A stretch of 59,753 bases of DNA from a virus. The stretch is taken from the UHGV virus genome UHGV-0209512; one strand, written 5' to 3'. Of this stretch, positions 19,517 to 22,737 are shown in pieces; within the stretch, counting starts at the first letter, position 1, and the number at the start of each line of letters is the position of its first letter. The notes beneath the pieces were generated by a model that had not been told where the DNA came from, made no database searches, and saw only the letters and a list, made by a program, of their open reading frames with translations. Position numbers and translations under genes: made by a program.

Positions 19517-19785
19517 AAGAGATTGTTGTAGGTAAAGAGTATCGTTTGCTGACTGATATTGGCGGTGTTGGGTATAGTCCGGGCGATGGTGTTGAGTTCC
19601 GGGAACTGAAAGCTGGTTCTATTGTTACTGTTAATAAGGTGGTGTTTGATCTGCATATCCTTTTCGGGCAGTGGAACCATACTGTAATTGTTAGCCAGGG
19701 TAGCGATGGATACAATGAAGAAGAGGATGCTTACGAAATCAGTTATACTGGTCTTGTAGGCGCCAATTTTCTTGAAGAAGTATAA
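19507..19785 (+). CDS. Hypothetical protein (92 aa)
   Basis: ORF overlapping the upstream stop. Confidence 0.5.
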   Translation: MRVEEIVVGKEYRLLTDIGGVGYSPGDGVEFRELKAGSIVTVNKVVFDLHILFGQWNHTVIVSQGSDGYNEEEDAYEISYTGLVGANFLEEV

Positions 19786-19836
19786 TTATCAATCTATAAT
19801 GGGCTCTAAGGAGCCCTTAATTATCTGGAGGTTGTT

Positions 19837-20404: not shown

Positions 20405-20670
20405 TTACTGCTCAAGAAGCTCGTGAATTAAGTGATAAGCTGGATATTAGCGAAGATATTGCAGTCATTAGTGATAGTATTCGCGCAGCTGCTACAAAGG
20501 GATACAATAAAGTATCACTTGTAACTAAATACGGATCTGTTGGCAATCCTGACACTCAAGACCCGACCACTATGAAGATTGCTAAATGGTTAGCAGATTC
20601 AGGTTTTACTGTCCTATACTATCCTTCAATGGACCAACGGGATAACGAGCGTACTGAGGTGGCATGGTGA
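20401..20670 (+). CDS. Hypothetical protein (89 aa)
   Basis: ORF with ATGA overlap to the upstream gene. Confidence 0.45.
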   Translation: MITAQEARELSDKLDISEDIAVISDSIRAAATKGYNKVSLVTKYGSVGNPDTQDPTTMKIAKWLADSGFTVLYYPSMDQRDNERTEVAW

Positions 20671-20737
20671 TTGAAGAAAATATCAAATATTGGAAAGAAT
20701 TCATTGACGAAATGTTGAAACCGATGGAGAAGAAATA

Positions 20738-21130
20738 ATGCTATTAGTCGTCACCGGAGGTCGAGATTTTAAGCATGTGGAGTATATTTACGCTCAATTG
20801 GATAAGCTGCATATGCAAAGAAGGATAACCACACTTCGCCACGGTGACGCTGACGGTGTTGACCGCATTTGCGCACATTGGGCAGAGCGCAACGGTATTA
20901 AGACAGAAGCGTTCCCTGCCCCGTGGGACAATCTTTCACTGCCAAATACTAAGATACGGTATAACGCCAGAGGTGCTTATAATGCACAAGCGGGCGCTTA
21001 CCGCAATCAATTAATGCTGGATACTGATCCTAAACCAGATCACGCTATTGTGTTTCCAGGCGGAGCTGGTACTATGGACATGTACAGACGGATTAAAGCA
21101 TCCGGTATTCCTTACACATTAGCGGAGTAA
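20738..21130 (+). CDS. DUF2493-like (SLOG-type Rossmann fold) protein
   Basis: LLVVTGGRDF ... HGDADGVDRICAHWA ... AFPAPW ... YRNQLM ... IVFPGGAGTMDM ... GIPY matches the DUF2493 consensus as recalled. Confidence 0.5.
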   Translation: MLLVVTGGRDFKHVEYIYAQLDKLHMQRRITTLRHGDADGVDRICAHWAERNGIKTEAFPAPWDNLSLPNTKIRYNARGAYNAQAGAYRNQLMLDTDPKPDHAIVFPGGAGTMDMYRRIKASGIPYTLAE

Positions 21131-21604
21131 ATGATGGCTGACGTTAAAACTATTGTTGATGCAATGGACGAATCCAAAGACTGCCAACTGAAGAAGTCTT
21201 TTGAAGTGAAACAAGTTACAGAAACGCAGTTGATAAGCAACTTTGCGCGTTATTGCGGATTGGGTCGCGGGAAGGACTGGAACGGTCTCATTGTTATGCC
21301 CACATCACAGATCCTGCTATACGTGCGCAACATTGTAGAAGATGTTCTGCGTCTTCAAATAGATATTGGTGACGTAGAAATTAACATGACCGCTAGTTCC
21401 ACCATTGTGGTTAAATGGCAGTCGGGCGAGACACTTCGTTTGGAAGCGTGTCATTGTGCTAAGAGCTTGCACCACCTGCGCGGTTGTCACTACCAGTTCG
21501 TTGGGTTTGTACATCCGCAAGGGTTAAGCGAGCGTACGGCGCTGGTAGCGCGTTTGCTGCTGCGTCCTTATAATAACGAGCCGGAAGTCATATACGAGGC
21601 GTAA
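21131..21604 (+). CDS. Hypothetical protein (157 aa)
   Basis: Intact ORF; no motif recognised. Confidence 0.5.
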   Translation: MMADVKTIVDAMDESKDCQLKKSFEVKQVTETQLISNFARYCGLGRGKDWNGLIVMPTSQILLYVRNIVEDVLRLQIDIGDVEINMTASSTIVVKWQSGETLRLEACHCAKSLHHLRGCHYQFVGFVHPQGLSERTALVARLLLRPYNNEPEVIYEA

Positions 21605-21605
21605 A

Positions 21606-22028
21606 ATGATTAAACACGTCAAGCAACCAACTTTAAATACATGCGTTTCTGCGTGTTTGGCAATGATCCTTAATAAACCTGTTGAGAAGGTGATTGAGGA
21701 ATTTCATGATCGATATTACAACAACTGGGAAATAACAATTTCCGAATATTTAGTACAAAACAATGTTGACCACATCCGTTCTGTAGGCGGTGGGCGTGAA
21801 ACTATATACATGGGCGGTTTGTTTTTGTGTACTGTCCCAAGTCTGAATGTTCCTGGAGCACTGCATCAGGTTGTGATCGATACAACTAATCACAAGTTTA
21901 TTGTACATGACCCAATTAAAGGTTGGGAAGGTAAAAAGTTCTATGTTGGTCCGGACCAAGATCCTGAACAGCCAGGAGCATTTATCATTCATACTTGGGT
22001 TAAAGACGTTGAGATTGTACTTAATTAA
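21606..22028 (+). CDS. Putative papain-like cysteine peptidase (C39-like)
   Basis: N-terminal QPTLNTCVSACLAMIL (Gln...Cys) and later HQVVIDTTNHKFIVHDP resemble the Cys/His arrangement of C39-type peptidase domains; by eye. Confidence 0.4.
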   Translation: MIKHVKQPTLNTCVSACLAMILNKPVEKVIEEFHDRYYNNWEITISEYLVQNNVDHIRSVGGGRETIYMGGLFLCTVPSLNVPGALHQVVIDTTNHKFIVHDPIKGWEGKKFYVGPDQDPEQPGAFIIHTWVKDVEIVLN

Positions 22029-22090: not shown

Positions 22091-22276
22091 ATGACCAAAC
22101 TATACGCCGGATTGTTTTTATTTGCGACGTTAATGTTCGCTGGACTTTATACCTATACAGTAGTCGAACAACCTTCCACGGTTATCCGAATCTTTGCAAG
22201 TACAGGACTGTGCATCTGTCTTATTCTGTTTGTTTTATGTATTGTTATTATCCAAGACCAAAGGAAAATTAAATGA
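22091..22276 (+). CDS. Small membrane protein (61 aa, two hydrophobic helices)
   Basis: LYAGLFLFATLMFAGLY and GLCICLILFVLCIVII hydrophobic segments. Confidence 0.45.
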   Translation: MTKLYAGLFLFATLMFAGLYTYTVVEQPSTVIRIFASTGLCICLILFVLCIVIIQDQRKIK

Positions 22277-22737
22277 CAACCATTGCTTACGATGGAAAAG
22301 TATTAGCTGCGGACCGTGGAGTTATGCGCGGGGAAGTTGTGACTGCATATAAGAAAGTTCACAGCGTAAATGGGCATCGTGGACGCTTCTTGCTGGGCTT
22401 GTGCGGTCTGACTGCATTTACTGATCAGGTATTGCGTTATTTTAATAGCCCGGAACCTGTTAAGTTCCCTGATATTAAACTTTACAGCAAAGATGATGAT
22501 TACGGGCAAACTTGCGGTCTTGCGGTTACTCCGGAAGGCACTTGCCATTTTATTTACAATGATGGTACGTTGAGCGAGCCTATGCTGGACGGCTGGGGGT
22601 CGGATGGTAGCGGTTGTGTGTTTGCTGCGGGAGCTCTGGCTGCTGGTGCAAGCGCACGCGAAGCTATCGAGCTAGCAATCAAGCATACTACATGTGCATT
22701 TCTTGGCGTTGATACAATATCGTTTGAGGGTTTTTAA
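22273..22737 (+). CDS. HslV/proteasome beta-like N-terminal-nucleophile peptidase homolog
   Basis: Starts M-TTIAYDGKVLAAD (Thr right after Met, as in HslV TTIVSV); C-terminal GSDGSGCVFAAGALAAGASAREAIELAIKHTTCAFLGVDTISFE parallels HslV GSGGPYAQAAARALL...; AAGGAAA RBS. Confidence 0.5.
   Translation: MTTIAYDGKVLAADRGVMRGEVVTAYKKVHSVNGHRGRFLLGLCGLTAFTDQVLRYFNSPEPVKFPDIKLYSKDDDYGQTCGLAVTPEGTCHFIYNDGTLSEPMLDGWGSDGSGCVFAAGALAAGASAREAIELAIKHTTCAFLGVDTISFEGF

Follow-up and report, generated by a model that had tools for sequence, protein, structure and literature searches.

Avs3 (AVAST type III) belongs to the STAND NTPases, and its effector cuts DNA as a non-specific nuclease. One phage gene with a reported phenotype against it is ORF83 (open reading frame 83) of the Seuratvirus PhiDruSM1, and the present work concerns its orthologue in UHGV-0209512, a virus genome of 59,753 nucleotides that was analysed whole (the window). 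This gene occupies positions 20738..21130 on the + strand and encodes a SLOG-fold protein with a single domain, a member of the YAcAr family (PF10686), hereafter the SLOG protein. The window is an essentially complete Seuratvirus (Queuovirinae) genome with about 94-95% identity to its closest relatives, KS_W4, RCIP0359 and PLYYY01.

Ojima et al. (2024 preprint, 10.1101/2024.04.14.589459) plated a library of single-ORF deletions of PhiDruSM1 on Escherichia coli carrying individual defence systems. Deletion of ORF55 (an ATP-dependent DNA ligase), ORF72, ORF83 or ORF84 lowered infectivity on AVAST type III and gave small plaques. ORF83, labelled 'Smf/DprA' by HHpred in that study, carries the activity entry 'Anti-AVAST typeIII' when cloned and supplied in trans, and the cloned ligase ORF55 is active too; for the ORF83 deletion no phenotype is listed on the other defence systems of the panel. 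Loss of ORF84 has the strongest effect on plating on AVAST type III (1e-4) and also lowers plating on qatABCD. ORF84 could not be cloned, perhaps because it is toxic, and the authors caution about polar effects and plasmid overexpression. EVADES (10.1101/2025.06.06.658234) catalogues ORF83 as an anti-defence protein and describes Avs3 as sensing phage proteins and acting via a non-specific double-stranded DNA endonuclease. The accessory-gene screen of Silas et al., considered as a possible origin of the name ORF83, is not its source.

In the window, an ATG-to-TAA frame of 130 codons plus the stop fills the interval 20738..21130 exactly. The first-pass annotation had placed an ORF there, and every motif that it quoted is present in the translation: TGGRDF at residues 6-11, HGDADGVDR at 35-43, AHWA at 46-49, FPAPW at 59-63, RNQLM at 89-93, FPGGAGTMDM at 106-115 and GIPY at 123-126. 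Cloned ORF83 and the window gene share 95.9% nucleotide identity, and 126 of 130 amino acids are the same (96.9%). The two proteins are equal in length, both genes have a micro-ORF upstream and ORF84 or its orthologue downstream, and residues R89, N90, T112 and D114 are common to both. The substitutions V14A, H47Q, R78K and D95N separate them, none of which hits an invariant position. Eleven of the 16 nucleotide differences between the genes are synonymous, as fits a coding region under purifying selection; judged from the sequence, the reading frame is real and not accidental. The window is not PhiDruSM1 itself, given these 16 differences and the absence of both a Druad1-like 44-residue ORF and ORF85.

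The deletion primers used for ORF83 can be placed on the window, with junctions at 20706-20740 and 21107-21141, and the next junction maps to the end of the adjacent gene, the ORF84 orthologue. The ORF83 deletion keeps the ATG and the last seven codons; thus the reading frame continues across the scar and the gene that follows retains its start. The earlier statement that the function of the SLOG protein is uncharacterised is out of date, because its orthologue has a preprint-level anti-Avs3 phenotype, obtained with a plasmid-borne defence system. A genuine counter-defence role is probable. The phenotype is known from PhiDruSM1 only, and that phage carries ORF85 after ORF84, whereas the window does not.

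The SLOG protein is 100% identical to a protein of phage WildeMaa, and at least 95% identical proteins occur in 33 phage records, where their labels vary between hypothetical, 'GTP-binding domain', 'DNA binding protein', 'phosphoribosyl transferase' and 'DprA'.

Family membership, fold and conserved crevice

The SLOG superfamily is said to have been defined by Burroughs et al. in 2015, with a YpsA-like clade that holds YAcAr. The SLOG protein matches Pfam PF10686, formerly DUF2493 and now YAcAr ('YspA, cpYpsA-related SLOG family'), with a score of 65.1 bits, well over the gathering cutoff of 28.2 (E=4.9e-18; residues 3-64 on profile positions 3-64 of 66), and all 17 of its 17 word-index homologues carry the same domain. 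PHROG 289 is matched over nearly the full length (residues 3-127, E=2.7e-23). The DUF2493/SLOG assignment of the first-pass annotation is thereby borne out; its interpretation as a whole, a protein that may bind or process a nucleotide signal or precursor, is partly supported. All the YAcAr signature residues are present (GGR after strand 1, GxAxGxD, PAxW, RN and FPGGxGT) and are 90-99% conserved among 228 dereplicated domains, the set to which the conservation values below refer. The conservation and fusion statistics were drawn from the 150 best-scoring representatives and 62 viral loci and favour consensus-like members. Searches of NCBIfam and PADLOC gave nothing useful, the only match being to TrmH at E=0.16. 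The PHROG label 'GTP-binding domain' was treated as uninformative, since the sequence contains neither a P-loop (GxxxxGK[ST]) nor an NKxD motif. Phage P1 DarA, tried as a SLOG-containing anti-restriction relative, matches only at E=0.16-0.33 over a glycine loop of 21-28 residues and was rejected.

The identity and family of the protein are virtually certain. The gene identity is settled and the family is already curated in Pfam, so the window adds nothing new on identity; as a 97%-identical orthologue has also been catalogued with a phenotype, the finding as such is already known.

The protein has a SLOG-type Rossmann-like alpha/beta fold. Its fold relatives are the LOG-like TM1055 (11.8) and the DprA-like antitoxin ShosA (11.7), several LOG phosphoribohydrolases (about 10.5), the ThsA SLOG domain bound to 3'-cyclic ADP-ribose (10.4), the molybdenum cofactor carrier protein (10.4), DprA (9.3-10.2) and the TRPM2 chanzyme (9.5). 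Foldseek agrees, with 1WEK, 5WQ3, 3UQZ and 8ZVA at the top, and EVADES likewise reports LOG and DprA structural neighbours for ORF83. Searches of Protein Data Bank sequences with a 16-sequence and then a 90-sequence profile found no significant relative, the top matches to BtuF and ribosomal protein S3 being spurious; thus no YAcAr protein appears to have a solved structure.

Near-invariant positions are G7, G8, R9, L21, G36, A38, G40, D42, W48, A49, A61, W63, A85 and G86 and, in the C-terminal part, R89, N90, M93, F106-P-G-G-x-G-T112 and M115. By the secondary structure of the model, most of these positions fall at the start of a helix or in a loop that follows a strand, as would be expected of a ligand crevice. 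The loop after strand 1 (T-G-G-R-D, residues 6-10; 20753..20767, + strand) holds G7 (99%), G8 (96%) and R9 (94%), and falls in register with V-G-S-R of E. coli Smf/DprA in an alignment that is not significant. After strand 2, within the stretch matched by the Pfam YAcAr profile, comes a glycine-rich loop (H-G-D-A-D-G-V-D, residues 35-42; 20840..20863, +) with G36 (98%), A38 (93%), G40 (99%) and D42 (96%), and strand 3 ends in F-P-A-P-W (residues 59-63; 20912..20926, +), where A61 is conserved to 90% and W63 to 97%.

Alignment and secondary structure place a subfamily-specific insertion of 21 residues, rich in lysine and arginine, directly after W63 (residues 64-84; 20927..20989, +). It is predicted to form a beta-hairpin with strands at 73-76 and 79-82. 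The segment after W63 is 21-23 residues long in 27 of 240 domains and six residues long in 191 of 240. In the hairpin subfamily (the 27 domains, from diverse phages) Y81 and D114 are invariant, and A83 stands in place of the usual lysine or arginine.

The most conserved polar pair of the family, R89-N90 (21002..21007, +; 99% each), is followed by P-G-G-A-G-T-M-D-M (residues 107-115; 21056..21082, +), a predicted LOG-like phosphate/ribose-binding loop. In an hhalign comparison with E. coli PpnN, in which only 15 columns around this PGGxGT loop aligned, FPGGAGTMDM stands opposite FPGGVGTAEE, and PpnN E264 opposite M115. Position 115 is methionine in 91% of the family, and position 114 is aspartate in 71% and asparagine in 18%. 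The alignment of our own profile with PpnN stopped short of the segment with R89. EVADES (10.1101/2025.06.06.658234) pairs R115, the catalytic arginine of the LOG enzyme Cg1261, with R89 and K116 with N90 by structural superposition, and D114 with the LOG glutamate by spatial proximity. It also reports a confident AlphaFold 3 complex with AMP at R89, N90, T112 and D114, in a numbering that is the same as that of the window protein.

Distribution of the family and candidate mechanisms

With a limit of E<=1e-3 an exhaustive HMMER search recovers 33,207 YAcAr cluster representatives (50% identity), and with E<=1e-10 it still recovers 18,890; the majority are stand-alone proteins 113-130 residues long. 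Of 50,697 phage records, 545 (about 1%), from many host genera, contain homologues, as do giant viruses of amoebae and 186 plasmid records, 111 of them conjugative, mainly from Rhizobium and Agrobacterium. The recognisable fusion partners among 64 long members are DUF4326 (six), DarT1-associated NADAR (three), generic NADAR (one) and Macro (two), together with single fusions to a zinc finger and to a primase zinc ribbon; tandem YAcAr domains are found as well. Three proteins of about 1100 residues (P0029, P0062 and P0082) join a DarT1-type NADAR to two or three YAcAr domains and to DUF4326 within a single polypeptide, whereas P0022 (1411 residues) has YAcAr and DUF4326 and no NADAR; these very large multi-domain proteins may be ADP-ribose-processing 'polyvalent' proteins. 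ICP1 HelB is an SF1B helicase with a DUF2493 domain at its C-terminus. According to Iyer et al. 2022 (PMC9503650), most viral SLOG domains fall into the YpsA-like clade and are mostly stand-alone, with the same fusions and others to HNH, exonuclease and SF1 helicase domains; these authors propose for viral SLOG domains a role either in sensing ADP-ribose-derived molecules produced by host immunity or in breaking the N-glycosidic bonds of such molecules.

The 150 flanking genes surveyed at 61 dereplicated viral loci, called with a crude ORF picker, include no conserved partner. Where these neighbours are annotated, they are for the most part DNA polymerases, DnaB-like and other helicases, primase/helicase, exonuclease, clamp loader, single-stranded DNA-binding protein, uracil-DNA glycosylase and NinG; NADAR and Gad1 turn up once each. 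For example, the YAcAr gene overlaps the end of the DNA polymerase gene in Klebsiella phage KpV52, lies between a DnaB-like helicase and a primase in mycobacteriophage Pocahontas, and stands beside an SF3 helicase and a C5 methylase in a Vibrio phage. On Agrobacterium plasmid pAtCFBP6624 (L089, 1-5351) and a Sulfitobacter plasmid (L090, 1-5348), a SAM-methyltransferase/DEAD-box helicase gene, a Toprim gene and a gene for a 313-residue DUF2493 protein stand in a row and are followed by WGR or DUF736. This conserved trio, shared by two alphaproteobacterial plasmids that are unrelated, has the look of a module for plasmid establishment or anti-restriction; its large methyltransferase-helicase resembles phage P1 DarB.

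The best explanation overall, which we put forward tentatively and at slightly less than an even chance, is that the SLOG protein is an accessory counter-defence factor acting through its nucleotide pocket. The conserved crevice at the C-terminal ends of the beta-strands would be the working site, formed by G7-G8-R9, G36/G40/D42, W63, R89-N90 and P107-G-G-x-G-T112, with D114 added in the hairpin subfamily. Its ligand would be a ribose-5'-phosphate nucleotide, most plausibly of the AMP or ADP-ribose type and either free or attached to nucleic acid, which might then be sequestered or have its N-glycosidic bond cleaved. Because the catalytic glutamate of LOG enzymes is a methionine here, such chemistry would differ from theirs. 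The pocket mechanism is favoured because conservation centres on pocket residues over a huge host range, the loop is LOG-like and every recurrent fusion partner handles ADP-ribose. The AMP complex reported by EVADES and the occurrence of homologues on phages and plasmids also speak for the explanation. A pocket-dependent nucleotide mechanism, considered by itself, is possible, the balance leaning modestly against it. The ADP-ribose prediction for viral SLOG domains is the same as that of Iyer et al. 2022 (PMC9503650).

Several points weigh against this explanation. We know of no nucleotide messenger for Avs3, so a role in soaking up or degrading a signal leaves the sole reported phenotype unexplained. 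Methionine replaces the LOG glutamate in 91% of the family, and D114 is found in just 71% of it. No Macro, NADAR or Nudix partner is annotated in this phage lineage. The experimental support comes from one preprint, in which the defence system was plasmid-borne and whose authors caution about polar effects. The AlphaFold 3 docking of AMP, as a modelling result for a Rossmann-like pocket, is weak evidence, and the fusion census is biased because it was drawn from the 150 best-scoring matches.

Alternatively, the crevice and the hairpin rich in lysine and arginine might bind single-stranded or damaged phage DNA, possibly at a modified nucleotide, much as DprA or ShosA would, so that replication or recombination intermediates are protected or sent to repair and DNA cutting by Avs3 is better tolerated, much as the phage ligase would allow. 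We regard this as the main rival and a serious one, at about one chance in four, and several points speak for it: deletion of the ligase ORF55 shares the anti-AVAST III phenotype and the cloned ligase is active, and ligase-dependent repair as a counter-defence against DNA-targeting nucleases is described for PhiKMV phages. ShosA binds single-stranded DNA and has a repair role. Replication genes flank the family at the 61 viral loci, its domains are fused to the HelB helicase, a primase-type zinc ribbon, HNH, exonuclease and SF1 helicase domains, and the plasmid gene follows a methyltransferase/DEAD-box helicase gene and a Toprim gene; the NADAR-DarT1-type fusion partner is reported to act on ADP-ribosylated DNA. 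However, position in a replication module may mirror expression timing alone, and the LOG-like PGGxGT loop and the Macro and DUF4326 fusions fit a small-molecule ligand. Membership of DprA proper finds no backing either. The DprA profile PF02481 (DNA_processg_A) does not match the SLOG protein, hhalign against E. coli Smf gives a probability of 0.8% and thus no significant alignment, and a weak PF02481 match (5.8e-5) occurs in one of the 64 long family members. DprA/Smf proteins combine a SAM domain and an extended Rossmann domain with or without a winged helix, whereas the SLOG protein is a single domain of 130 residues that lacks these extra parts. EVADES (10.1101/2025.06.06.658234) finds the DprA dimerisation and RecA-binding residues absent and the predicted interaction with RecA poor (interface predicted template modelling score, ipTM, 0.18).

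There are two further rival explanations. The SLOG protein could bind Avs3 directly, or mask the phage protein that Avs3 senses, in which case its pocket would have a regulatory part at most or none at all. The remaining proteins listed as anti-Avs3 (Lidtsur-6, Lidtsur-17 and Forsur-7) are small phage proteins, and inhibitors of this kind usually act by binding. The surface hairpin of the subfamily could serve as an interaction surface, and expression in trans is enough for activity. Conservation of the pocket over 33,207 clusters, from bacteria to amoebae, nevertheless argues for a conserved ligand and not for a host-specific protein target, and EVADES kept ORF83 out of its predicted direct binders and proposed AMP binding; direct inhibition is very unlikely. 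The other explanation is that there is no specific anti-Avs3 function, the deletion causing a small general loss of fitness or disturbing ORF84 expression, with an effect visible only under overexpressed Avs3. The phenotype is shared by four unrelated genes (ORF55, ORF72, ORF83 and ORF84), all with small plaques; ORF84, the next gene downstream, shows the strongest effect of all and resisted cloning; and the authors themselves raise polarity and plasmid overexpression. Against this stand the in-frame scar of the ORF83 deletion, which keeps the stop codon and the start context of ORF84, the activity of cloned ORF83 in trans and the lack of any other listed defence phenotype in the panel for this deletion, and a non-specific effect is accordingly judged improbable.

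The accessory factor with a nucleotide pocket, our preferred explanation, can be reconciled with a DNA role if the pocket binds a nucleotide that is part of DNA, such as an ADP-ribosylated base. Carried further, YAcAr proteins might be a large class of mobile-element enzymes that act on nucleic acid and not on free signals, either removing adducts of the ribose-phosphate or ADP-ribose type from DNA bases or flipping out and cleaving damaged or modified nucleotides, with an Arg-Asn/Asp active site instead of the Arg/Glu pair of LOG. This extension is speculative, and the chances are well against it. If true, YAcAr would join Macro (DarG) and NADAR as a third type of activity that repairs DNA or frees it of ADP-ribose. 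It would also account for the fusions to NADAR-DarT1, Macro, helicase and primase domains, for the positions in replication modules and plasmid-establishment regions, and for the sensitisation of a phage to a DNA-cutting immune system when YAcAr is lost.

With the identity of the gene and a counter-defence phenotype already on record, the remaining interest lies in the biochemistry of the family. YAcAr is among the largest uncharacterised families of mobile elements, with its 33,207 clusters, its presence in about 1% of phage records and its members in giant viruses and on conjugative plasmids. Its one experimental phenotype concerns an immune system without a known nucleotide signal, which is at odds with the computational prediction of ADP-ribose ligands. 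As PCR fragments suffice to rebuild a Seuratvirus and there is a clean assay for deletion and complementation, the SLOG protein offers a practical entry to YAcAr function.

Neighbouring genes in the window

The SLOG gene, which the first-pass annotation placed in a middle-gene array, lies within a run of co-directional small genes on the + strand, between a replication module on the - strand and the lysis/terminase genes. Directly upstream, as genomic context, is an unannotated micro-ORF of 24 codons (MVIEENIKYWKEFIDEMLKPMEKK; 20664..20738, +), identified from the sequence. Its ATG shares bases with the stop codon of the gene before it (ATGGTGA), and its TAA with the start codon of the SLOG gene (TAATG). 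CAjan, three IMG/VR relatives and PhiDruSM1 all keep this frame open and encode almost the same peptide; in PhiDruSM1 the micro-ORF follows a strong Shine-Dalgarno sequence, AAGGAGG. The micro-ORF is unannotated in CAjan, and the primer table for PhiDruSM1 does not list it with the deleted ORFs that lie between ORF82 and ORF83.

Downstream, the SLOG gene adjoins the orthologue of PhiDruSM1 ORF84 (21131..21604, +), which encodes 157 residues, belongs to PHROG 25149 and has no Pfam match. The product is 95.5% identical to that of ORF84 over 133 residues, and homologues are confined to Seuratvirus-like phages. Its AlphaFold 2 model (predicted local distance difference test, pLDDT, 55.5) is too poor for a fold search. 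In PhiDruSM1, ORF85, a small gene whose deletion reveals an anti-qatABCD phenotype, sits between ORF84 and a gene whose product starts with MIKHVKQ. At 21604-21606 of the window the ORF84 orthologue directly abuts the MIKHVKQ gene, and thus ORF85 is absent. Four genes downstream of the SLOG gene, a homologue of HslV/proteasome-like peptidases (22273-22737, +; PHROG 1040, E=5.6e-33) has a weak match to Pfam Proteasome; its PhiDruSM1 orthologue, ORF88, is deletable with no listed defence phenotype.

Across 17.3-24.6 kb, promoter-like and terminator-like sites are no commoner than in shuffled sequence. At 19772-19816 (+) the region has its best match to a sigma-70-like promoter (TTGAAG-17-TATAAT, 10/12), directly followed, between two small genes, by a GC-rich hairpin (GGGCTC-TAAG-GAGCCC) with a T-rich tail. 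An operon might begin or end at this element, which lies some 0.9 kb upstream of the SLOG gene, with the reservation that overall site counts are not above chance.

The phage lineage (the window, KS_W4 and CAjan) carries on the opposite strand a full set of 7-deazaguanine DNA-modification genes, encoding a DpdA-like transglycosylase, FolE, QueD, QueC and QueE. A recombination/repair module on that strand comprises a Cas4-like exonuclease, a Sak4-like annealase, an ATP-dependent ligase, RNase H and RusA. Among the PhiDruSM1 counterparts of these genes, the que region has counter-defence phenotypes against BREX type I and a 'restriction-like' system, and the ligase one against AVAST type III. 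A tie between the SLOG gene and the 7-deazaguanine pathway was set aside, as the que and dpdA genes are distant and on the other strand, and the YAcAr family is common in phages of many other hosts.

Comparison with ThsA, LOG enzymes and DprA

In Thoeris ThsA (7UXS), a protein of host defence, the SLOG domain is fused to a SIR2 effector, whereas the present protein is a stand-alone phage product. It has no effector domain, no match to a PADLOC defence model and no TIR neighbour, features by which a protein of the ThsA type would be recognised.

The LOG profile PF03641 (Lysine_decarbox) gives no match to the SLOG protein even at E<=1. LOG enzymes such as Cg1261 (5WQ3), TT1465 (1WEK) and E. coli PpnN carry a catalytic glutamate in PGGxGTxxE, where the SLOG protein has a methionine, which implies that it is not a canonical LOG hydrolase. 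Solved LOG chains are 170-208 residues long, so that the SLOG protein is about 60-80 residues shorter, and it has extra invariant residues in R9, D42 and W63. R89, conserved to 99%, is equated with the LOG catalytic arginine by the EVADES superposition described above.

The likeness to DprA consists of the G-G-R and G-x-A-x-G-V-D motifs and the R-N pair; unlike in DprA and ShosA (8ZVA), the last loop is LOG-like (PGGxGT). As far as its sequence allows the protein to be placed, it is neither a canonical LOG hydrolase nor DprA. It is a member of YAcAr that shares its fold and parts of its pocket with LOG and DprA, while falling outside both families in the membership searches that were run.

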